64,000 nt of DNA. Origin: Candidatus Bathyarchaeota archaeon. Its GTDB lineage: Archaea; Thermoproteota; Bathyarchaeia; 40CM-2-53-6. Below the pieces are notes generated by a model that saw only the letters and a list, made by a program, of their open reading frames with translations, searched no databases and was not told the DNA's origin. Every line of letters starts with the position of its first letter. The stretch's first letter is position 1. Location of the stretch: the NCBI GenBank assembly GCA_963833125.1, contig CAWHWX010000012.1, positions 1 to 64,000 on the forward strand, in the 5' to 3' direction. The translations under genes were made by a program, and so were the position numbers. Shown here in pieces: positions 1 to 23,429 of this stretch.

Positions 1-68
1 TTTGTGGGAGCTTTTATATTGCGCAAAGAGTGCAGTGAGCACTCCGAATATTGGAGGAAAATATCTTA

Positions 69-1783
69 ATGTCAACCACATCAAAGAAGAACACAAAGTA
101 TGTTGCAGCAGCCGTGCTGATAGTTATCATATTGGCCGGCATTGGATACTACTTCTACCAGTCATCCACGGTACCCCCCACCATGACGACCTCGACATCA
201 CAATACAAAGACACAATTGTGATGGGAACGACCGACGCCGTCCAGACCACCATCGACCCCGCCGACGCCTATGACTACTTTGGCATTAACATGATTAACA
301 ACCTAGGCGCGCCGCTCGTCGACTTCGGGCCCGGAACTAACAACACAAGCCCGTCCGGCCTTCAGCCGGCGTTAGCCACAAACTGGTCACAAAGCTCGGA
401 CGGCCTGACCTACACCTTCACCCTCCGCTCAGGGCTGAAGTATGATGACGGCACCCCGTTCAACTCCACCGACGTCAAGTTCAGCGTGGAAAGAGGAATA
501 GCCATTAACGACCCCAATGGCGCGTTTAACGGTCTCGGCGTCTCATCGATAATCGACTCGGTAACAACACCCGACGCTAATACGGTGGTCTTCCACCTGA
601 AGGCACCGTTCTCGGGGTTCCTAAACATGATGACCTTCAGCATCATGTATCCAGTGAACCCGAACAAGGTGCCGCAGGGACATGCAACCCCTGCAACGAT
701 ATGACTGGAATAGTCAACTTCACAGCCAACAACGCAGCAGCTAGCAACCCCAACGGCCTCGGCCCCTACACTCTGACCACGTGGACCAGATCGGGCACCA
801 AGGACACGGAGATGGTTCTGACTGCCAATCCCAACTATTGGAACTATCCAGCCTACCCGAAGACCCAGACGATAATAATCAAATTCTACCCTGACGCCAC
901 CTCGCTTGCAGCCGCCATCAGGTCAGGCGACGTTGACCTTGCCTACAGGCAGTTCACAACGTCCGACATCCGGAGCTTGATGACAACGCCCGGGCTTAAG
1001 GTGTACTCAAGCCCCGGTGCCTTCATCCAGTATCTCGTCATCAACGAGAACAAGGCTCCGTTCAATGACATCAACGTTAGGCAGGGTATAGCCGCAGCCA
1101 TCAACAGAACCGACCTTATCGACACCGTCTTCGCTGGCACAGCCACACCTCTCTACTCGCAAATACCTCTTGGCATGGGGTACCACACAGATGCCTTCGA
1201 AACGGCATATGGCGCCGGCCCCAACTACGCTCTCGCTCAGCAGCTTTTGGCGAAGTCGGGCTACAATGCCAACAACAAGCTAACGGTCGACCTGTGGTAC
1301 GAGACCACCGGGCACTATCCCCAGAGTTCAGACCAAGCCCTTGTCCTGAAGAAGGACTTAGAGGCGAGCGGTGTGATTACCGTCACGCTCAACGGGGTTG
1401 ACTGGCCCACAATGCACTCGAACGTAAGAGCGGGCAGCATGGGCACGTTCATTTACGGCTGGTACCCTGACTTCATCGACCCCTTCGACTACACCACACC
1501 ATTCCTATCCTCAACGGGCGCTTCGTGGCTCAATGACGGCTATAACAGTACAGCCATGGATTCCCTGTTGACCCAGTCACTCTCAGCCACGCCTTCCAAC
1601 GCCGCGTCGATCTACGGCCAAATTCAGACACTGCAGGCTCACGATGTCCCGATGATTCCATTGTACCAAGGCGGCTCCAACTGCTGCGGTGCGGTGGCTA
1701 AGACTTCGGTGGGCGGCGTCTACTTGGACGTTACCCTGATCTTCAGGCTTTCGACAATCTACGAGACAACAGAGACAACATAA
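69..1783 (+). CDS. dppA: ABC peptide/nickel transporter substrate-binding protein (family 5), split by a frameshift near 700
   Basis: ORFs 51..704 and 701..1783 join into one SBP_bac_5 protein: N-terminal TM, TIDPA, LATNWSQSSDGLTYTFTLR, GLGPY, RQGIAAAINR, WYPDFIDP. Confidence 0.85.
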
Positions 1784-1840
1784 CATAGCGGGGAAGTCTA
1801 CTGCAGAGCTTCCCCCTCTCCCTATTTTTGGGATGAGCAA

Positions 1841-2869
1841 TTGAGCTTAAAGAGTTACATCGTCACGCGTGCCCTCCTCACAATTCCGACTGTGTTCCTT
1901 CTAGTAACGATAGTTTTTCTCATCGTGCGGGTGCTTCCAGGGGATCCGGTTCTCCTCCACTTCGGAAAGCAGGTCAATCCCACCGCCTTGGCCGCGGTCA
2001 GGCATTCGCTCGGCCTGGACGTCCCCATCTACGTCCAGTACTACAACTACATCATCGGTCTGTTTCATGGGAACTTGGGCATCGCCTTCTCGAACGAAGA
2101 GCCGGTCACCCCGCAGGTCCTCTCGGCTTTCCCGGCCACTCTGGAGCTCTCGATTGGTTCGATGATTGTGGCGGTGCTGGTGGGCGTGGTCCTGGGCGTC
2201 AGGTCTTCGAGGAAATACGGTTCGCTGGAGGACAAGATAATCAGGACCTTCGGCGCTGTCGTCTACTCCATTCCGGTCTTCTTCCTGGGTCTGATCTTCA
2301 TCGGCGTGTTCGCGATTGCTTTTCACATACTTCCCTCGGGCGGAAGGTATTCCCTTTTAATCCCGATCGGCGGGACCGTCTTCGGCGTGCACATCCAGAC
2401 GGGGCTGTACACCATTGATTCTCTTTTGGCAGGAAACTTGGGCGAGTTCGTCGACGCAGTGCGGCACTTGATACTTCCGTGCACTGCCCTCGGGCTTTAC
2501 ATCTCTGCCGTCTTCCTGAGGATAACCCGAAGCAACATGCTGGAAGCGCTCGGCCAGGAGTACGTCACCGCAGCCAGAGCGAGGGGGCTCAAAGAGAGGA
2601 CCGTCCTCTACAGCTACGGCCTCAGAAATGGCTTGCTTCCTGTGCTGACGATCATGGGCCTTGAGTTCGCCGGCCTGCTGGGAGGGGCCATATTGACCGA
2701 GACGACTTTCGCCTGGAATGGAATAGGGACCTATATAGTCACGGCCATCACCGACCGGGACTACATTGCAATTCAGGGCGCCGTGGTCTTCTTCGGAATT
2801 CTGGTTGCGCTTGTGAGCCTAGTGGTCGACATCCTGTACGCCTATCTCGACCCGAGGATAAGATACTAG
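1841..2869 (+). CDS. dppB: ABC peptide transporter permease
   Basis: PGDPV N-terminal motif and EAA loop (YVTAARARGL). Confidence 0.9.
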   Translation: MSLKSYIVTRALLTIPTVFLLVTIVFLIVRVLPGDPVLLHFGKQVNPTALAAVRHSLGLDVPIYVQYYNYIIGLFHGNLGIAFSNEEPVTPQVLSAFPATLELSIGSMIVAVLVGVVLGVRSSRKYGSLEDKIIRTFGAVVYSIPVFFLGLIFIGVFAIAFHILPSGGRYSLLIPIGGTVFGVHIQTGLYTIDSLLAGNLGEFVDAVRHLILPCTALGLYISAVFLRITRSNMLEALGQEYVTAARARGLKERTVLYSYGLRNGLLPVLTIMGLEFAGLLGGAILTETTFAWNGIGTYIVTAITDRDYIAIQGAVVFFGILVALVSLVVDILYAYLDPRIRY

Positions 2870-2877
2870 GTGATTTC

Positions 2878-3756
2878 ATGAAGAAAGAATCGGATTCGCG
2901 GATTAGACCTGCAATCAACTTCTTCTTCACGCTGCCCAAATTCGGGACAGGCGGAATGATGGTGGTCATCGGAGCCGTCATCGTAATCATCTTGATGGCG
3001 ATGACTATACTCTCCCCATTCATCACACCTCACAGCCCGATTCAACTCTCCGTCGGCCCTGCCGACGCAGCTCCGTCGCTGAGTTTTCCCATGGGCACCA
3101 ACCGCCTCGGCCAGGACATTTTCAGCAGGATGATTGCCGGAGGTTCGACCATGATGGAGGTAGCCGGCCTCGCGGTTGCCATCTGCTTCCTCATAGGCGT
3201 TCCCCTCGGCCTGCTCGCAGGCTACTCCAGGAGACTGATTGACGGCCCCCTCTCGCTACTGATGGACTCTCTCTACGCCTTTCCGGGCCTCGTCCTGGCA
3301 ATAGCCATAGCTGCTGTCCTCGGCCGCGGTGTCGTGAATCTCGCGATAGCCATAGCCGTCGTGTACATCCCTACCTACTTCAGGGTCGTCAGGAGTCAGG
3401 TCTTGACCCTGAAGGAGATGCCGTTCGTGGAGGCGGTCAAGGTGGAGGGCGGCGGAACCCTGAACGTCCTATTCAGGCAGATTTTCCCGAACGTGCTCGC
3501 TTCCGTGGCTGTGATCGCGTCAATCAATGTCGCTGACGCCGTCATCACCGAGGCGGGTCTCACGTACATCGGCCTCGGAGTGAACACGGCACTTCCGGAC
3601 TGGGGTTTCGACATCTACTACGGATACCAATCCATGCTGGCCGGCGCTTGGTGGACCGTGCTCTTTCCAGGCTTGCTGGTCGTCCTCCTCGCAGGCGGGT
3701 TCACATTCATCGGGGAAGGATTGAGCGAAGTCCTGAACCCGAGGTTGAGGAGGTGA
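2878..3756 (+). CDS. dppC: ABC peptide transporter permease
   Basis: MGTNRLGQDIFSR, FVEAVKVEG and PDWG motifs. Confidence 0.9.
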   Translation: MKKESDSRIRPAINFFFTLPKFGTGGMMVVIGAVIVIILMAMTILSPFITPHSPIQLSVGPADAAPSLSFPMGTNRLGQDIFSRMIAGGSTMMEVAGLAVAICFLIGVPLGLLAGYSRRLIDGPLSLLMDSLYAFPGLVLAIAIAAVLGRGVVNLAIAIAVVYIPTYFRVVRSQVLTLKEMPFVEAVKVEGGGTLNVLFRQIFPNVLASVAVIASINVADAVITEAGLTYIGLGVNTALPDWGFDIYYGYQSMLAGAWWTVLFPGLLVVLLAGGFTFIGEGLSEVLNPRLRR

Positions 3757-3757
3757 G

Positions 3758-4726
3758 ATGACGCTACTCAAAGTCCAAGGACTGAACGTCAGCTACAAGA
3801 CCATGAAGGGAGAACTGAAGGCCGTCCAGGGGGTGGACTTCGAGCTCGAGGAGCAGGAGACTTTGGGTATCGTCGGAGAGTCTGCATGCGGTAAGTCAAC
3901 CCTCGGCCTTGCGCTCCTGAACCTCGTGCCTCCGCCGGGGAGGGTTACCGACGGCAGGATACTCCTCGAGGGAGAGGACATACTGTCCCTCGACAACGAG
4001 CGGCTGAGGCGGACGAGGGGGAAGGTGGTCTCGATGATCTTCCAAGACCCTATGACTTCTCTGAACCCGGTGAAGAAGATAGGGGAGCACTTCGTCGAGG
4101 CCATCAGGGCGCACAACCCCAGCGCCAGGCGAGGCGAGGCCCTGGAGAAGGCCGGGAAGATCTTGGGCGAACTTGGGATCTCTCCGGACAGGATGGCCGA
4201 CTACCCCCACCAGCTTAGCGGAGGCATGAAGCAGAGGATTATGATCGGTCTCAGCCTTATCCTCGATCCCAAGCTCCTGATTGCCGACGAGCCCACCACC
4301 TCCCTGGATGTGGTGATAGAGGCCCAGATTCTCGACCTGCTCCGCCAGCTAAAGTCCTCCCTCAAGCTGTCCATGATTTTGATCACGCATAATTTGGGGG
4401 TTGTCGCAGAAGTGGCAGATAAGATAGCAATAATGTACGGCGGGGAGATCTACGAGCTCGCAGAGACGAAGGCCATCTTCAAGAAGCCGCTCTTCCCCTA
4501 CACGCAGTTGCTCCTGAAGCTGGTTCCGAACATTGCTTCGGAGTCCACCTCGTTGGAGTGGATTCCAGGTTCGCCCCCGGACCTCTCTTATCCAATATCG
4601 GGGTGCAAGTTCGCGGCGCGATGCCCCTTCGTCTTCGACCGATGCAGGAAAGAACGGCCGAGCCTACGAGATATCGAACCAGGCCACAGGGCGGCCTGCC
4701 ACCTGTACGACGGCGGTCGAAAATGA
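3758..4726 (+). CDS. dppD: ABC peptide transporter ATP-binding protein
   Basis: Walker A GESACGKS, LSGGMKQR, DEPT, C-terminal Cys-rich oligopeptide-transporter domain. Confidence 0.92.
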   Translation: MTLLKVQGLNVSYKTMKGELKAVQGVDFELEEQETLGIVGESACGKSTLGLALLNLVPPPGRVTDGRILLEGEDILSLDNERLRRTRGKVVSMIFQDPMTSLNPVKKIGEHFVEAIRAHNPSARRGEALEKAGKILGELGISPDRMADYPHQLSGGMKQRIMIGLSLILDPKLLIADEPTTSLDVVIEAQILDLLRQLKSSLKLSMILITHNLGVVAEVADKIAIMYGGEIYELAETKAIFKKPLFPYTQLLLKLVPNIASESTSLEWIPGSPPDLSYPISGCKFAARCPFVFDRCRKERPSLRDIEPGHRAACHLYDGGRK

Positions 4727-5709
4727 GCGACCCTCTGCTTCTCTTCCAGGACGTCAAGATGCACTTCCCCGTAAGGAGGAGTTTCCTCGAGGGGCTGGTC
4801 GGGGCGGAGACGAAGTACGTCAGGGCAGTGGACGGCGTCTCCCTCGGCATCGAGGAGGGGGAGGTCTTTGTCCTCGTAGGCGAAAGCGGCAGCGGGAAGA
4901 CGACTCTCGGCAAGCTCAGCCTCCGGGTATACGTTCCTACGGCAGGGAACATTCTCTTCGACGGCCGGGCCATAACTGGGCTGAGCGGTGAAGCGCTCAA
5001 GAAGTTCAGGCGGACATCGCAAATGGTCTATCAGGACCCGATGGCAGCGCTCAATCCTAGGGTCAGAATCGGGGACGCTATAGCGGAGCCGTTGAAGTTT
5101 CACAGCATCGGAACTGAGGTAGAGCAGAGGGAGAGGGCCTTCAAGATGATGAGCCGCGTGGGCTTCGACCCCCCGGAGGAGATCTACTCCAGGTTCCCCC
5201 ATGAGCTGAGTGGAGGCCAGAGACAGAGGGTGGTGATTGCCCGAGCGTTGATCCTTAACCCGAAGTTCGTGGTGGCCGACGAGCCGGTGGCCATGCTCGA
5301 CGTCTCCATTAGGGCCCAGATTCTGAAGCTACTCCTGGATCTCAAGAGGGAGATGAATCTCACCCTGCTCATCATCACTCACGACATCGCAATCGCGAAG
5401 TATTTCGCTGACCGCATAGGAATAATGTACCTGGGCAAGATTGTGGAAAGGGCCGACAGGGAACGCATGTTCAGGAATCCGATGCACCCCTACACCCAAG
5501 CGCTCTTCTCCTCCGTCCCAGTCCCTGATCCCGAAGCGGCGAAAACCAGGATGATAATACAGGGGGAGATTCCCAGCGCCATGAACCCGCCCACCGGTTG
5601 CGTCTTCCACCCAAGATGCCCACGCGTTTTCGGCAAGTGTTCAGCTGAAGTGCCGCCGCTACTGGAGTATGAACCAGGACATTATGTTGCCTGCCACCTG
5701 TACTCCTAA
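4723..5709 (+). CDS. dppF: ABC peptide transporter ATP-binding protein
   Basis: Start MSDPLL overlaps the dppD stop (ATGA). GESGSGKT, LSGGQRQR, HPYT, GCVFHPRC. Confidence 0.92.
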   Translation: MSDPLLLFQDVKMHFPVRRSFLEGLVGAETKYVRAVDGVSLGIEEGEVFVLVGESGSGKTTLGKLSLRVYVPTAGNILFDGRAITGLSGEALKKFRRTSQMVYQDPMAALNPRVRIGDAIAEPLKFHSIGTEVEQRERAFKMMSRVGFDPPEEIYSRFPHELSGGQRQRVVIARALILNPKFVVADEPVAMLDVSIRAQILKLLLDLKREMNLTLLIITHDIAIAKYFADRIGIMYLGKIVERADRERMFRNPMHPYTQALFSSVPVPDPEAAKTRMIIQGEIPSAMNPPTGCVFHPRCPRVFGKCSAEVPPLLEYEPGHYVACHLYS

Positions 5710-5795
5710 CGGAATATGTACAGGAAGACATGAGGTGGGGAGTAAGGGTCTATGTCTCCACACGTGAAGTGTAATGACCGGGCCGGCATGGCACG

Positions 5796-6425
5796 TCAGA
5801 CGTGGAATACCGCGGTCAAGATAGCAGTGGTGCCAATAATGAGAAACACGATGAGTGAGAAGATTCGGATTCTCCTCGGTGACAGTATTTTGCTTAGCCG
5901 ATTTCCGATCATCGTCTCTACCGCTGTGGCGGACACGAGAGCGATGACTGCTCCTGCGAAGACTAGAAGCGTATTCTGAAAGCGGGCTACGAACAGTATC
6001 GTTAACACTTCAGTCGCATCACCCGCCAGATCAAGTAATATGAGTAAGGAGACTGCGTTTAGGAAGACAAGCCACAAACTTTTGGACGCTTTCAGCGATA
6101 GCTTTCTTTCCGCCTTGGCGAGTTCCTCCTCTTCCTTCTTTGCTTCGAAAAAACTCCAAATACCGTACGAAATCATTACCAACCCACCGACCAGGCTGAT
6201 TAGAGAGACTGGAAGGAAGCTAACTAGAAAATACCCTACTGTCACTATGATGGCGCTGGTTATTGTAAATGCTACTGAACCCGCAGCGAATACGACCCAT
6301 GGCTTCACTTTCGTAGCAAGTGAAAGAAGCAGAAGAGCATCCTTATCCGTTAACTCGGCAACGAAGATTGCTGCCATAATTGTGAGAAACGCGTTCAGCA
6401 GTACCAAACTTTCGGATATCGGCAA
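5796..6425 (-). CDS. TMEM165/GDT1 (UPF0016) family membrane protein
   Basis: Two degenerate E-x-G-D-K/R repeats (AELTDKD, LAGDAT) and about 6 TM helices. Confidence 0.75.
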   Translation of the reverse strand: MPISESLVLLNAFLTIMAAIFVAELTDKDALLLLSLATKVKPWVVFAAGSVAFTITSAIIVTVGYFLVSFLPVSLISLVGGLVMISYGIWSFFEAKKEEEELAKAERKLSLKASKSLWLVFLNAVSLLILLDLAGDATEVLTILFVARFQNTLLVFAGAVIALVSATAVETMIGNRLSKILSPRRIRIFSLIVFLIIGTTAILTAVFHV

Positions 6426-6598
6426 TCTTCATCACCTCGTATTAACAGGATTTCGAATTGTGAAGCTCACACCGAACGATCTGATCAGAATTTCAGAACA
6501 AGTTTACGCCCGAGAAATGGATTGCGGTCAGAGCCGAGACCAGTCGACTTGTGATGTACTAAACTTCAAATTCAATAACCCTACCTCTCTCAAGAGGC

Positions 6599-6862
6599 GT
6601 GGGACCTCACGGGGGACAAGTGATTTCAGTGATCGACCAAATGCAACGTAGATCGGGTCCTGGCCTATGCGAGATGTGTGAGAGAGAACCGGCTACTAGA
6701 AAGGCCAAGTTCAAGGCACAATACCTTCAATCCACATCAGCTGCGGTCTTCGATGAGGAAAGCCTCGTCGACGTTGAAATGATGAAGAGGATATGTGAGG
6801 GTTGTCTAAAGAAATTGCAGGAAGCTAAGAACGTTACAGAACTGACGTTCGAACGGTTGTAG
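6599..6862 (+). CDS. small Zn-binding hypothetical protein
   Basis: Two CxxC pairs (CEMC, CEGC). The start may be ATG 6641. Confidence 0.55.
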   Translation: MGPHGGQVISVIDQMQRRSGPGLCEMCEREPATRKAKFKAQYLQSTSAAVFDEESLVDVEMMKRICEGCLKKLQEAKNVTELTFERL

Positions 6863-19743: not shown

Positions 19744-20499
19744 ATGCGATTAGAAGTTCAAGCGGCCTCTAGAAAACGACGAGTTCTTCCTATGCACGTT
19801 GTAAACTACACCGCTTTCCGCGAAGATTTCCATACCCAAGTAGACGAGAGCGAACTTCATCTCCTGGAGAAATTCCATGCAGCCCGTATCCTATCCCAAC
19901 GAGGAGACGTAGAGACCTTTGTCGATCCGGTACTCTTTGATACCGAGAAACATTCGCAGAGACTTACTGCTGATCTTGCTGGCGTTGAAGGTGAAACTCT
20001 AACCGCAGTCTTCTGTGAGACTAAGCCCCCAGACGACTCGCTTCTCAGGGAGCTTGAAATGGTTGATGGGGCGGAGAACTCTAAGACTGTCGTCGTCTAT
20101 CCTTTCAGAGTCAATTCGGAATCTATTGATGAGAGGTTTCCACGAGCTGTAGAAAATGGTAGGTTGACGATTGAGCATCTAAACTGGCGCGACAGAGGTT
20201 TGGAAAAGGCGTTCCGACAAGCGTTAGAGCTTATGGAATTGCTCTGCAACGAAACACGCGTCAAGATGCTACTTCCGCTATTGGAGCATCCGCAGGGGAA
20301 AAAGAACTTCCGGGAGGAGATCAACCCGAAGCTCATCTACGAAAATGTCCCATTACTGAGAACGCATAAACTGATCAGTCAACTTTCAGACGACCTTTAC
20401 GACTTGACTCCGATGGGCAAGACAATCCTGGGCGAATATCTCGCATTTGTTGAGAAGGTACAGGACCTACTCGAGAAATCGGCTAAAGAGGAAGACTGA
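19744..20499 (+). CDS. hypothetical protein with C-terminal winged-helix
   Basis: C-terminal NETRVKML...YDLTPMGK wing. N-terminal ADL...FCETK resembles PD-(D/E)XK. Confidence 0.6.
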   Translation: MRLEVQAASRKRRVLPMHVVNYTAFREDFHTQVDESELHLLEKFHAARILSQRGDVETFVDPVLFDTEKHSQRLTADLAGVEGETLTAVFCETKPPDDSLLRELEMVDGAENSKTVVVYPFRVNSESIDERFPRAVENGRLTIEHLNWRDRGLEKAFRQALELMELLCNETRVKMLLPLLEHPQGKKNFREEINPKLIYENVPLLRTHKLISQLSDDLYDLTPMGKTILGEYLAFVEKVQDLLEKSAKEED

Positions 20500-20513: not shown

Positions 20514-21002
20514 ATGAGCACAAACGCGGAACGCTTAGACCAATGCCAAGACTTCGGCGACGTTTTTGAGTTAGTGAAGAAATCTGCTGAACATTCATTG
20601 GGGAGACGTAGGGCTGGGTTGATGCTTTACTTGGCGAAATTGCCTAGTCATATTGGTGCGTTCCACACGATGGGGACTAATGGGATCGTTATGAACAGAA
20701 CGACATTGGACGTGATAACCCACAGCGCCCGGTCGTTGCGTGAAATAAATTCATACGTCTACTCAATTCTCCTTCACGAGTATCTGCATGCTCTTGGATA
20801 CGTGGAGGAACGGGAAGTCAGGAAACTCGTGTATGACGTTTCATTGGACGCATTTGGGCCAGAGCATCCTGCGACAGAGATTGCTTCGAAAGGCCCAAGC
20901 GCAATCTTGCCTAACATTGTGCCAGAAGACACGCCGAACGCGACACCAGACTTTGAAGTGATTCCTGACCTAGAAAGAAGCAGCCAGCGTTACATCAGCT
21001 AA
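20514..21002 (+). CDS. conserved archaeal protein with HEYLH zincin motif
   Basis: YSILLHEYLHALG. Confidence 0.7.
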   Translation: MSTNAERLDQCQDFGDVFELVKKSAEHSLGRRRAGLMLYLAKLPSHIGAFHTMGTNGIVMNRTTLDVITHSARSLREINSYVYSILLHEYLHALGYVEEREVRKLVYDVSLDAFGPEHPATEIASKGPSAILPNIVPEDTPNATPDFEVIPDLERSSQRYIS

Positions 21003-23296
21003 GCCGCCACATCTGAACCACTTACCGAGTAAACGACCCTATCATCTACACTCTTCCTCTTAGCATCAGGCCAGAGGCTGAAGGGAAGAAGACCATAGGA
21101 AGACCTTCCAATGTATGTTAACCTATCAGACCCACAATGCATGCATTTGGGCGTAATTTCAACATCAGTTCGCCCGCAATTATTGCATGAGGAGTAGTTT
21201 GAGGAATACGTGAGGAATTTGCAGCCGGCACCCTGCGCTCTTTCTGTGAGCTTCAAGAGCTCAGTCGGTCTGGACTCCGCCGAGATGCAAATTACGTTTA
21301 GGTGTCCTCCTGGCGTCGCTGCTTGAAACTTGGATTCGATCGTGATTCGATTCTCGAGGGAGACGTTCATTGTGAGAGGTAAAGTTGGTATGTCCGTGTA
21401 ATAGTCGTGGGCTCTTCCGCTACCCGGTACCATTACCGATCTTCCAAATTGTTGAATGTCCAATTCCGCCAGTCTCTCAACCGCCTCATCCGCAGGGCGT
21501 TGCGAAATTGTCAATCGCATTTCCCCTTCCTGAGAAGCCGTTTTCAAATGTTTTGATGTGTCTTGAAGCAACTTTAGTGCGAAATCTCCGGCAGTTTTGT
21601 CTAGCCTCGCTCCCGTGTGAGTCTCAACTGCCTCGCTCAGACCAACGAAAGCCAGATTGTACGAAGCGTTCTTTTCATAGAAATACGGCCCAGCCGCGCT
21701 GTTGCCCGAGAGGATCGGGAGCAATGGTTGCTTTAGCCTTTCGTTTATGAACCTCTTCTTAGCCTTGAACCCTTCAACCGTCAGAGCGACCGTTTCTCTT
21801 AGTAGCGCGAGGAATCTGTCGTCACTCTTCTTCGCTTCGTATGCTATTCGGGGGAGGTTGAGGAATATTGTGTCCATGCTGCCCGTTCTCATGCAGTCAG
21901 CGTCCCAGTGTCCCGTCCATTCGTCCCCCAACCTTAGCCCCGTAGCCGAGTAACTGCTCTTTTCTTCATCTCCAAGAAGTTCGAAGAAGGGGATGCTTCG
22001 TTGAGCTGCCAATTCATGTGCTCTTTCTAAGATCCTTCGCGCTCTATCACTGAGTAAGGCTTTGGGTCTCACTTTTACAAGAAGGTGGGGAGTGACTGGT
22101 GGTCTCGCAGACGAGATCCTTCTAAATGCTTCGATCGTCGCTTCCGCGATGAGGAGGGCTTCTTCGGAAAAGTCTCGGTATTTACCCGATGTCTTCCCGT
22201 TCGGGCCTATCGCCTCCTCTTGTGCAAGGAACTCGGGGATTGTCAGCTCTATTGCGATCGAGATACTCGCTTGAGGATTGCGGGGAGGCATCTCTCGGAG
22301 AATGGAAGTAAAAAAATAGTACAGCACTCGCGTGATATTTTCGTTTTTCATGCCATGTGCGAAGGGTGCAAGGAAGATGTTGAAGGAGTCAAACGTCTGT
22401 TCTCCCGAGGCTTCGGGGCCGCCTACGGCTATCACTTGATTAACCAAGCCAAGTGCCGCTTCAAGTGTGTCTGGAATCGGCGTACCGGACACTGAATGCT
22501 TTAGGAAGTATCTCAGGTCGTGGATGACTTCGTTGGGTGTAAGAATCCAACTTTCGAGGTTAGCGATATGGATTGCTCCTGAAAGGTGTGCGTCCGCTAA
22601 CTTGTGAGGTAGACAGTTTAGCAGAACATATTCTGAAAGAACAGATTTCGATGAGACGTGGTTGACGTAGTCTGCGTCTAGCCCTTTCTCCCCAGCGGTC
22701 TTGATGAGTTGAGCTACATCGTGAACCGGCATCCCGACCCTTGTAAGCTTGTGACGATACTCCTCGAGTTTCTTCTCGATGAGAATTGCGTTGACGAACT
22801 CGCGTATTAGCGGCGCAGTTAGGTATAGCGTCTTGAGCCTGACCAATCTGTCCTCTGCTTCCGCAGCAATTTCATCTGCCATCTCTTGCGGAACACCAGC
22901 CTCGACTACCAGGGATCGTGCAATTTTGTTGCGGTGAAATTCTTCTATTGCAAGTTTGGATGTTCTGACGTACAATTTGCCGCGCTTTACGTTAACATAC
23001 TCATCCAAGTCCCTCGCAAACGAGACGATCATCGAACCTAATTCTGTGATTCCGTACCGCTTCGTCTTCTTCTCAAGCATCACCAGCCCCGTATCGGTTA
23101 GGCTCCTCAGGTGATAGACGAATTTTCCTGCATCTCGAACTGGGTCTAGTTTTAGCTGGAACATTAATTCCGTATATTGAAGTGGGCCCTTCGTGGAGAG
23201 CAGTCGTAAAATTTGTAGTCTAACCGGAGCTGATGCCGCGTCGAAGATTCCAGCACCGACCCTCTCCGATGACCGAAGCAATCCTCTTACCGCCAA
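20999..23296 (-). CDS. ArsR-like wHTH + ATP-cone + NrdD-like (class III RNR fold) fusion with degenerate catalytic residues
   Basis: wHTH (RLQILRLL...YHLRSL), ATP-cone (VRTSKLAIEEFHRNKIARSL...LTAPLIREFV), NrdD motifs (AHLSGAIH, NLPRIAY, GGHL, CNNC/CMHC). Confidence 0.85.
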   Translation of the reverse strand: MAVRGLLRSSERVGAGIFDAASAPVRLQILRLLSTKGPLQYTELMFQLKLDPVRDAGKFVYHLRSLTDTGLVMLEKKTKRYGITELGSMIVSFARDLDEYVNVKRGKLYVRTSKLAIEEFHRNKIARSLVVEAGVPQEMADEIAAEAEDRLVRLKTLYLTAPLIREFVNAILIEKKLEEYRHKLTRVGMPVHDVAQLIKTAGEKGLDADYVNHVSSKSVLSEYVLLNCLPHKLADAHLSGAIHIANLESWILTPNEVIHDLRYFLKHSVSGTPIPDTLEAALGLVNQVIAVGGPEASGEQTFDSFNIFLAPFAHGMKNENITRVLYYFFTSILREMPPRNPQASISIAIELTIPEFLAQEEAIGPNGKTSGKYRDFSEEALLIAEATIEAFRRISSARPPVTPHLLVKVRPKALLSDRARRILERAHELAAQRSIPFFELLGDEEKSSYSATGLRLGDEWTGHWDADCMRTGSMDTIFLNLPRIAYEAKKSDDRFLALLRETVALTVEGFKAKKRFINERLKQPLLPILSGNSAAGPYFYEKNASYNLAFVGLSEAVETHTGARLDKTAGDFALKLLQDTSKHLKTASQEGEMRLTISQRPADEAVERLAELDIQQFGRSVMVPGSGRAHDYYTDIPTLPLTMNVSLENRITIESKFQAATPGGHLNVICISAESRPTELLKLTERAQGAGCKFLTYSSNYSSCNNCGRTDVEITPKCMHCGSDRLTYIGRSSYGLLPFSLWPDAKRKSVDDRVVYSVSGSDVAA

Positions 23297-23429
23297 GAAA
23301 GCAACTAGGATACACTACCATATTCTTATGTTTAAAAAACTGTAGTTGGAAACATTCCGTACCTGTTCTGGTGAGTTGGTAATCTTTATTTTCTATTCAT
23401 ACCATGAAGACGTCGCAATCAACTGAGCT

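Follow-up and report, generated by a model that had tools for sequence, protein, structure and literature searches.

What may be the function of a protein which has the whole body of an anaerobic (class III) ribonucleotide reductase (RNR), NrdD, together with a DNA-binding domain in front of it, if the catalytic residues of the reductase are gone? This question was raised by an open reading frame (ORF) at 20999-23296 on the reverse strand of a 64,000-nucleotide stretch (positions 1 to 64,000 of contig CAWHWX010000012.1 from the Candidatus Bathyarchaeota archaeon assembly GCA_963833125.1), which as a whole is called the window below. A preliminary description, made from the letters of the DNA, had read it as a fusion of a winged helix-turn-helix (wHTH), an ATP-cone and a dead NrdD, reused as a transcription factor sensing deoxyribonucleoside triphosphates (dNTPs). 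In the analysis given here, the catalytic inactivity of the protein, that is the pseudoenzyme part of the earlier reading, was well supported. The protein is probably a transcription regulator for DNA-precursor metabolism, a candidate role which was proposed because of its architecture, the constraint on wHTH and cone, a predicted ArsR-like dimer, and the linkage to nrdD and pyrBI in relatives. The main uncertainty is the DNA and the ligand bound by the protein, not its deadness as an enzyme.

The ORF, described earlier as intact with 765 aa, was uninterrupted over 765 codons from its first TTG, with no internal stop before the stop codon at 20999-21001, and only its start was refined. Translation probably begins at the TTG at 23281 (residue 6), giving a product of 760 aa, because in an alignment of 14 orthologous upstream regions the conservation sets in at this codon, a Shine-Dalgarno (SD)-like GGCGGTAA precedes it, and a length of 760 aa is given in the database entries for the protein and its close relatives. 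Residue numbers refer to the 765-aa version throughout.

An N-terminal ArsR-like wHTH, an ATP-cone and an NrdD body with its Zn site, the layout noticed earlier, were recovered with Pfam, hhalign and profile matches. In Pfam, DUF7347 was matched at residues 17-92 (E 5.3e-9, 36.6 bits with a cut-off of 27.6), while HTH_5 (21.0 bits, cut-off 22) and HTH_20 (21.1 bits) were both slightly below threshold; the ATP-cone at residues 109-180 was also sub-threshold (E 3.6e-4, 21.5 bits with a cut-off of 25.8), and NRDD (PF13597) covered residues 215-756 with an E-value of 5.5e-64. The NCBIfam equivalog of NrdD (TIGR02487) gave 240.1 bits, below its cut-off of 326.35. An AlphaFold 2 (AF2) model, built with the 62-sequence family alignment defined below as input, had a mean predicted local distance difference test (pLDDT) value of 90.0 and a predicted template modelling score (pTM) of 0.80. 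When Foldseek was run with this model, the top 36 ranks were all NrdD, from P. copri, S. thermophilus, T. maritima and T4 (E 7e-27 to 1e-18), and class I RNRs and enzymes of the pyruvate formate-lyase (PFL) type trailed far below. The protein thus belongs to the NrdD superfamily by fold and fails the tested features of an active class III RNR.

The family alignment consisted of the query, 21 of 120 listed relatives and 40 of 150 listed representatives (62 sequences), whose members were chosen as full-length and matching from the N-terminus, hence it is no gauge of how frequent the architecture is. Its profile was searched against PDB sequences to place the NrdD catalytic residues. The beta-A Cys of the T4, S. 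thermophilus and P. copri NrdDs, which is conserved in 92.6% of class III RNRs according to section 10 of an RNR phylogeny preprint (bioRxiv 10.1101/2022.04.23.489257), was placed on E256. For the finger loop, whose motif is given in the same section as MGCR or MCCR with the catalytic Cys third, the Cys fell on L454 with T4 (MGCR lying on TGLR, with G and R matching), on G453 with S. thermophilus and on D458 with P. copri; residues 447-462 contained zero Cys, whichever of these template alignments holds. The radical Gly of the T. maritima and P. copri enzymes was placed on Y734, and single-sequence alignment agreed. T4 Asn311 (N311) corresponded to S473, and HxHD, by which P. copri NrdD binds the triphosphate of its substrate (PMC11226230), read H243-I-A-N246 in the alignment to that enzyme. 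P. copri residues 248-367, with Glu290, Asn298 and loop 2 of the specificity site, lie outside the profile alignment.

Among the NrdDs, the reference for numbering was E. coli NrdD from the annotated K-12 record, since an intron interrupts the gene in the T4 record. In an independent MAFFT alignment of E. coli NrdD with 106 representatives of 560-830 aa (44 of the 150 were dropped as fragments or intein-bearing), C175 was again found on E256 and C384 on L454. G681 was put on G735, one residue off the profile alignments, and the profile placement on Y734 was preferred. The three motifs TPNEVIHD, SATGLRL and RSSYG, in which the missing residues had originally been read, were present and give E256, TGLR at 452-455 and Y734-G735, and the alignment with solved NrdDs left the same picture of a Glu for the beta-A Cys, a Cys-free finger loop and a Tyr for the radical Gly. 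To judge from these alignments, this protein has lost HxHD as well as each of the three radical residues. What was retained is structural in part: the Zn-ribbon cysteines C704, C707, C718 and C721 were invariant in all 62 members, and the NLPR strand motif was conserved. The description as a dead pseudoenzyme could therefore be kept, since the radical residues and HxHD are lost, a class II RNR exists in the genome, and the gene is under purifying selection.

That the motif loss might be shared by other wHTH-NrdD proteins, as the preliminary description had considered, was found to be the case. Cys at the beta-A column 256 was present in 0/62 members, Cys at the finger-loop columns 452-454 in 4/62 and Gly at the radical column 734 in 12/62, and no member had all three together. 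Gly at column 735, as in the query, occurred in 15/62, mainly in closer relatives. At the HxHD columns, the first H was kept in 52 and the D in 11 of the 62 sequences, and the second His was not among the four commonest residues. All 62 members matched both NRDD and DUF7347, and 59 of them matched the ATP-cone at E<=1e-3. In the 108-row alignment, the canonical triad (beta-A Cys, M[GC]CR and RxxGY) was observed only in E. coli NrdD and 8 representatives, and none of these 8 has the winged helix: the 3 which were checked with Pfam carry two ATP-cones, and the other 5 have at most 18 residues there. Many winged-helix members terminate just past the Zn ribbon, without a glycyl-radical tail. As to the 12 members with a Gly at the radical column (R-x-x-G-x-Y type), all are without the beta-A Cys and nearly all without the finger-loop Cys, and this residual Gly suggests, on the alignment, a stepwise decay of the radical domain.

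The family comprises 352 clusters at 50% identity (E<=1e-30), and its N-terminal module (residues 6-214) was detected in 89/121 genomes of the class, or 55/75 high-quality ones, in an even sample of the class. The ratio of non-synonymous to synonymous substitutions (dN/dS) was calculated by the Nei-Gojobori method against the copy on contig C17 of the same assembly and against the closest public orthologue (L017). It was 0.07-0.11 for the whole gene (dS 0.47-1.04), 0.02-0.055 for the winged helix, 0.015-0.04 for the cone with the linker, 0.07-0.13 for the barrel and 0.08-0.18 for the Zn ribbon with the C-terminal part. The invariant and near-invariant columns of the family alignment concentrate in residues 26-190. 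From the low dN/dS and these conserved columns it follows that the protein is maintained: by these measures purifying selection on the gene is strong, and it weighs most heavily on the DNA-binding head and the cone rather than on what was once the active site. The orthologues at L022 and L039 stop early, after 601 and 235 codons, probably through assembly frameshifts.

For the origin of the family, a FastTree phylogeny was built on the barrel columns with 117 rows (the query, E. coli NrdD as outgroup, 103 representatives of 600-830 aa and 12 of the tandem NrdDs treated below). The 84 dead representatives including the query formed one clade with a Shimodaira-Hasegawa (SH)-like support of 99, neighbouring a group of archaeal canonical NrdDs, the tandem partners among them, and further dead lineages. 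The tree is compatible with one main origin of the dead family, which is not proof of it, because FastTree readily joins long branches and several were flagged. Eleven NrdD-like proteins (P0229, P0200, P0243, P0184, P0208, P0220, P0244, P0251, P0261, P0233 and P0269) have neither radical residues nor a winged helix and sit apart from the main winged-helix clade. P0229 and P0244, which were checked with Pfam, have ATP-cones, and their NRDD match ends near profile position 504 of 562. In the alignment, all four Zn-ribbon Cys are absent from 9 of the 11 and are retained in P0184 and P0220; at the Gly-loop columns 10 of the 11 are empty, and P0220 has residues there.

The reductases of the genome and the genus were then of interest. 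The assembly has 39 contigs and 3.07 Mb, with 87.8% completeness and 7% contamination. Two NRDD matches were revealed in it, both of the dead type: the window gene, and a 760-aa copy on contig C17 with the same gene neighbourhood. A class II-type RNR with an ATP-cone of its own was identified on contig C1, so it is not the case that the gene in the window is the only RNR, which the earlier reading had named as fatal to it. Orthologues of this class II RNR with 80-94% identity were present in 13/13 other genus genomes searched. No Gly_radical domain was found in the genome, no gene matched NrdR (TIGR00244), which was also not among the matches of the protein itself at E<=1, and no gene matched NrdG above the cut-off of TIGR02491 or TIGR02495. 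The best NrdG-like gene, a 201-aa radical S-adenosylmethionine (SAM) protein on contig C16, had 78.5 bits with a cut-off of 126.1 and was not linked to the dead NrdD, in agreement with the earlier remark that no nrdG is nearby. It is glycyl-radical-enzyme-activase-like, with a Fer4_12 match (C16:28002-28607, or L012:1225-1830, reverse strand), and in GC-rich DNA it adjoins the gene of a 385-aa AAA-type ATPase; the genome has neither a Gly_radical domain nor a canonical NrdD.

Among the 21 genus genomes searched (67-100% complete, this one included), an NRDD match was present in 18, with best scores of 196-230 bits, compared with 508-571 bits for canonical NrdDs. No active NrdD was found among these 21 genomes and no NRDD match exceeded 230 bits, therefore the dead gene is kept in the genus without an active NrdD partner. 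As for the class II RNR itself (C1:228164-230760, L003/L097), residues 1-741 and the last 123 residues are read in successive frames, both parts being about 93.5% identical to an intact 861-aa orthologue of the same genus (L098); a one-base frameshift, real or from the assembly, is indicated near codon 740 by these frames.

The head of the protein was compared with known DNA-binding and nucleotide-binding domains. The family wHTH profile matched solved ArsR/HlyU proteins (E 8.6e-5 to 5.4e-4), and a recognition-helix motif, G57-x-F59-x-Y61-H62-L63, was nearly invariant across the family; the recognition helix follows the ArsR pattern of the type 'xHLxxLxxxGLV'. When two copies of residues 6-214 were predicted together, the interaction score ipSAE was 0.56 (median of 3 runs) and 0.00 for the best of 3 controls, with a contact agreement of at least 89% and a partner pLDDT of at least 69. 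The ipSAE mark was reached by 20/30 solved same-chain pairs and 1/23 solved single chains, counts which hold only roughly here, since an alignment of our own was used for the prediction. The predicted symmetric interface was formed by residues 7-31 and 85-104, the first and last wHTH helices, in the mode of ArsR/SmtB, and this pass may show the likeness to solved ArsR dimers rather than give an independent proof.

For the second domain, residues 104-192 of the family were aligned by hhalign with canonical cones (those of class II RNR orthologues, tandem NrdDs and E. coli NrdD) at 98.5% probability, E 2.7e-15, over 81 columns, and by this comparison the domain at residues 109-191 is an ATP-cone homologue. 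The last cone helix retains E178, Y180, R181, H182 and R186, and the stretch E178-x-Y180-R181-H182 has its counterpart in the EYRH of the E. coli NrdD cone. V110, F120, I125, R181 and R186 were invariant in the family cone, and R111 and S113 invariant or nearly so. The roof of the cone reads V110-R111-T112-S113-K/R114 in the family (R111-T-S-K in the query), compared with V-R-K-R-D-G in canonical cones. The same VRTS-type cone was also found in some active-looking tandem NrdDs (L071, L077 and L094), therefore the variant predates the catalytic loss.

More hints were obtained from the neighbourhood of the gene in relatives. A scan with one genome per species gave at least 592 confirmed loci, from which the best 80 were taken with their flanks, all of Bathyarchaeia by record title; 65 of them have at least 2.5 kb of downstream sequence. 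In 15/80 loci a second NrdD gene lay on the same strand, 140-720 bp downstream. Of these 15 tandem NrdDs, twelve have RxxGY together with a CC finger motif (MCCR, QCCR or QCCA); two others run off their contig, and the remaining one, a shorter ORF, has the Gly motif only. Among the 89 class genomes with the N-terminal module, 15 had another match, to the cone alone, about 2.1-2.7 kb beyond the first on the same contig and strand; this match is again the tandem NrdD. pyrB was present in the flank of 53/80 loci, always on the opposite strand and downstream, i.e. convergent, and pyrI in 37/80.

Upstream of the gene, a block ACTACA[G/A]TTTTTTAAAC resembling a B recognition element (BRE) with a TATA element was found about 50 nt 5' of TTG 23281 (23330-23346). 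In 13 of the 14 aligned orthologous upstream regions, 16 of its 17 positions were invariant, and position 7 was G, A or C. L050 has the C at block position 7 together with a different first base, and L020 has masked bases further upstream. A divergent-promoter block and the SD-like block were also conserved in these regions.

The protein can be compared with three known systems. With class III NrdD (PF13597, TIGR02487; structures 1h78, 4coi/4u3e, 8p23 and 9d3x) it shares a barrel and Zn ribbon homologous over the full length, with Foldseek template modelling (TM) scores of 0.61-0.77 normalised to the target, and, as in many NrdDs, an N-terminal ATP-cone; outside the family, the sequences most closely related to it belong to archaeal NrdDs which have QCCR/QCCA finger loops and share its VRTS cone. 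Unlike NrdD, it has no radical Gly, finger-loop Cys, beta-A Cys or HxHD, scores below the equivalog and has an added N-terminal winged helix, which none of the 8 aligned canonical representatives has. It resembles NrdR (TIGR00244) in combining an ATP-cone with a DNA-binding module and in lying beside RNR genes in relatives. In contrast to NrdR, a protein of about 150 aa which binds DNA via an N-terminal Zn ribbon, it unites an ArsR-type wHTH with an entire dead RNR body, and its Zn ribbon is C-terminal and derived from NrdD; it is not a member of NrdR, and the relation would be at most a functional analogy. The ArsR/SmtB regulators (PF01022, PF12840; 1y0u, 3jth and 6j05) are similar in the wHTH profile match and the predicted dimer of helices 1 and 5, but in the present protein HTH_5 was slightly sub-threshold, and the sensor would be a 660-aa cone-plus-NrdD module instead of a metal site in the wHTH dimer.

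Taken together, we consider the protein as a dimeric DNA-binding regulator of ArsR type derived from NrdD, whose cone and dead barrel are the sensor, which originated next to nrdD and pyrBI and persisted in lineages that have switched to the class II RNR; the probability of this reading is put at roughly 0.6. The protein would dimerise via wHTH helices 1 and 5, probably also via the NrdD body as real NrdDs do, and the dimer would bind DNA through its two recognition helices. A ligand, most likely an adenine or a deoxy nucleotide, would be sensed by the cone and the dead barrel, and the output would be transcriptional control of genes of nucleotide metabolism. The ancestral targets would be the directly downstream nrdD and the neighbouring pyrBI, and in this genus the class II RNR and the dead-NrdD gene itself are the likely target candidates. 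In this way the protein could be a functional stand-in for the bacterial repressor NrdR, which was not found in this genome; the mechanism of NrdR as an RNR-specific repressor of bacteria is treated in PMC9110341 and PMC12176259. It is more tentative, and rather doubtful at present, that the whole allosteric apparatus of the RNR (the activity cone, the specificity site at the dimer interface and the dead pocket) was redirected from catalysis to DNA binding, in which case a fossil reductase would tell archaea how large and how balanced the (d)NTP pool is, and the transcription of nrd and pyr genes would be set accordingly; this would be an independent archaeal answer to the problem for which bacteria have NrdR.

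Several results weigh against the regulator of nucleotide metabolism. The cone of this protein scores below the Pfam cut-off. The canonical Lys/Arg of the cone roof are replaced by Thr/Ser, so ATP or dATP binding should not be assumed; in P. copri NrdD, according to PMC11226230, Lys7, Arg8, Arg87 and Arg91 hold the nucleotide phosphates, with Lys7 and Arg8 helping to compensate the charge. The class II RNR is adjacent in 0/80 loci. The linkage was counted in genomes of a single class which are related to one another, so these are not independent events, and pyrB is convergent, so it shares no promoter with the dead-NrdD gene. In the window neither an RNR nor pyrBI is adjacent, with only about 190 bp between 19554 and 19744. 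The block at 23330-23346 occurs nowhere else in the genome at up to 2 mismatches; a different conserved block was found for the class II RNR promoter when 22 upstream regions from two genera were compared, and a third one for the spacer between pyrB and pyrI in 29 such regions. Between the dead-NrdD upstream regions and the spacers to the tandem nrdD (14 loci), no consistently shared 11-mer was found at up to 1 mismatch. No shared operator, hence no DNA target, could be derived from these promoter comparisons. The dNTP-sensing transcription factor of the preliminary description is thus a candidate reading: the architecture, the wHTH and cone constraint, the predicted dimer and the linkage speak in favour, and the cone without the canonical Lys/Arg and the operator which was not found speak against.

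The same points could be explained if the protein binds DNA but uses its dead NrdD body only for scaffolding or oligomerisation, senses no nucleotide and has targets unrelated to nucleotide metabolism, for example as a general or chromatin-like regulator. The absence of an operator common to RNR or pyrBI promoters, the cone without Lys/Arg, the degraded HxHD site and the lack of nucleotide-metabolism neighbours of the gene in this genus are all in line with such a scaffold. We regard it as unlikely, because the cone and linker are the most constrained part (dN/dS 0.015-0.04), the (near-)invariant R111, S113, F120, I125, R181 and R186 fit a ligand site better than a spacer, and the linkage to nrdD (15/80) and pyrB (53/80) in relatives points to nucleotide metabolism. 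Another function, to which we give still less weight, is that of a non-catalytic partner subunit which would allosterically modulate the tandem NrdD or the class II RNR, the winged helix being a protein-contact module or secondary. Such a partner would explain why the gene arose beside nrdD and is still directly upstream of it in 15/80 loci, and why the barrel is conserved (dN/dS about 0.1), and real NrdDs are dimers. However, the gene exists in 18/21 genus genomes, in none of which a canonical-scoring NrdD was found (best at most 230 bits), the wHTH with its ArsR-type recognition helix is best conserved together with the cone, and class II RNRs differ in their dimer geometry.

A protein that is still a reductase or another radical enzyme on non-canonical residues, with G735 for example as the radical site, has very little probability. 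G735, one residue past the canonical position, occurs in 15/62 relatives, and contig C16 encodes the activase-like radical SAM protein although no Gly_radical domain exists in the genome. On the other hand, the finger loop and the beta-A position are both without Cys, the HxHD motif has decayed, the family does not conserve G735 and shows the full triad in 0/62, and the score of 240 bits is below the equivalog cut-off of 326; the activase-like gene is sub-threshold, distant and placed beside an AAA ATPase in GC-rich DNA, and a class II RNR is available in the genome. Least credible is a decaying pseudogene or an annotation artefact, which the missing catalytic residues and the interrupted frames of the orthologues L022 and L039 might recall: the frame is intact with a dN/dS of 0.07-0.11, and the family extends over 352 clusters and 89/121 class genomes with a confident fold prediction. 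This idea was rejected by the selection analysis.

To our knowledge, the transcriptional regulation of RNR is well described in bacteria, with NrdR, and hardly at all in archaea. If the dimeric regulator is true, a widespread and conserved DNA-binding dead RNR would be a candidate for the missing archaeal RNR regulator, and a clear case of the allosteric machinery of an enzyme reused as a sensor. No description of the family was found in the searchable literature, which covers journals other than subscription ones, and no relevant paper was found there for DUF7347, NrdD pseudoenzymes or archaeal RNR pseudoenzymes; the RNR phylogeny preprint (bioRxiv 10.1101/2022.04.23.489257) contains no 'helix-turn-helix', 'HTH' or 'DNA-binding'. 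The family is labelled 'anaerobic ribonucleoside-triphosphate reductase' in databases. Because it is named there as the enzyme, a class III RNR and an anaerobic dNTP route may be wrongly credited to Bathyarchaeia and other archaea when their metabolism is reconstructed. In the genomes searched of this genus only the class II RNR was found.

Table 1. Features of the NrdD-like gene and its upstream region in the window (positions of the window; residues of the 765-aa version)
Feature	Position	Strand	Evidence or remark
wHTH-ATP-cone-NrdD-like ORF	20999..23296	-	765 aa, or 760 aa from TTG 23281
ArsR-type winged helix-turn-helix (DUF7347), residues 17-92	23021..23248	-	Pfam, profile matches to ArsR/HlyU structures
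ATP-cone homologue, 'VRTS' variant, residues 109-191	22724..22972	-	Pfam (sub-threshold), hhalign
NrdD-type barrel, catalytic residues gone, residues 215-700	21197..22654	-	Pfam, NCBIfam, AF2, Foldseek
H243-I-A-N246 at HxHD site	22559..22570	-	alignment to P. copri NrdD
E256 at beta-A cysteine position (E. coli C175)	22529..22531	-	alignments
T452-G453-L454-R455 at finger-loop MGCR/MCCR position	21932..21943	-	alignments
Y734-G735, Y734 at glycyl-radical position	21092..21097	-	alignments
Zn ribbon and glycyl-radical-domain remnant, residues 701-765	21002..21196	-	C704, C707, C718, C721 invariant
Conserved promoter block ACTACAGTTTTTTAAAC, BRE/TATA-like	23330..23346	-	orthologous upstream alignment

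In the window, one flank of the gene consists of a convergent 162-aa gene with a HEYLH motif (20514-21002, +) and a 251-aa gene (19744-20499, +), and the other of a divergent 174-aa HEAT-repeat gene, an arrangement common to 10-14/80 loci. The 162-aa and 251-aa genes had no Pfam or NCBIfam match and were syntenic with the dead NrdD in 12-14/80 loci; the stop of the convergent 162-aa gene overlaps the 3' end of the dead-NrdD gene by 4 bases. In L017 and on C17 (C17:23220-24666), pyrB and pyrI sit between the 251-aa gene and the gene of V-ATPase subunit F. Other pyrB-like matches in the genome were located on contigs C18, C14 and C1.

Two resemblances were followed and dropped. When an adjacent class II RNR was looked for with tblastn, the only matches, of cone length and in 3/80 loci, proved to be the cones of tandem NrdDs, and a 'CTACAG/CTGTAG' likeness between promoters, seen by eye, was not upheld on comparison. 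Upstream of the class II RNR (L003:561-600, C1:228073-228112) a block of about 40 nt is nearly invariant in 18/22 RNR upstream regions. It contains two TACA(A/C) repeats spaced by one helical turn and, after them, a BRE/TATA-like element. This candidate regulatory site has no counterpart upstream of the dead-NrdD gene.

Contig C17 (45,000 bases) is collinear with 580-32600 of the window, with a nucleotide identity of 72-95%; other contigs cover 26,091 of the 45,000 bases of C17. Its dead-NrdD copy is nearer to L017 (dS 0.47) than to the window copy (dS 1.04), and two full-length copies of this gene were observed only in this assembly among the 21 genus genomes. The bin probably mixes two related populations, with an old segmental duplication as the alternative.

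In an Rfam scan of window positions 1-30000 no match was obtained. The first 6 kb of the window are GC-rich, and the idea that they are rRNA was rejected: positions 51-6651 (54-58% GC, compared with 45-50% elsewhere) contain an Opp/Dpp-type ABC transporter operon and a GDT1 antiporter. The identity of this stretch is 95% with C17:1-6336 and about 98% with the end of C5, far above the surrounding synteny; either a recent transfer or an assembly region that is shared or chimeric would fit.

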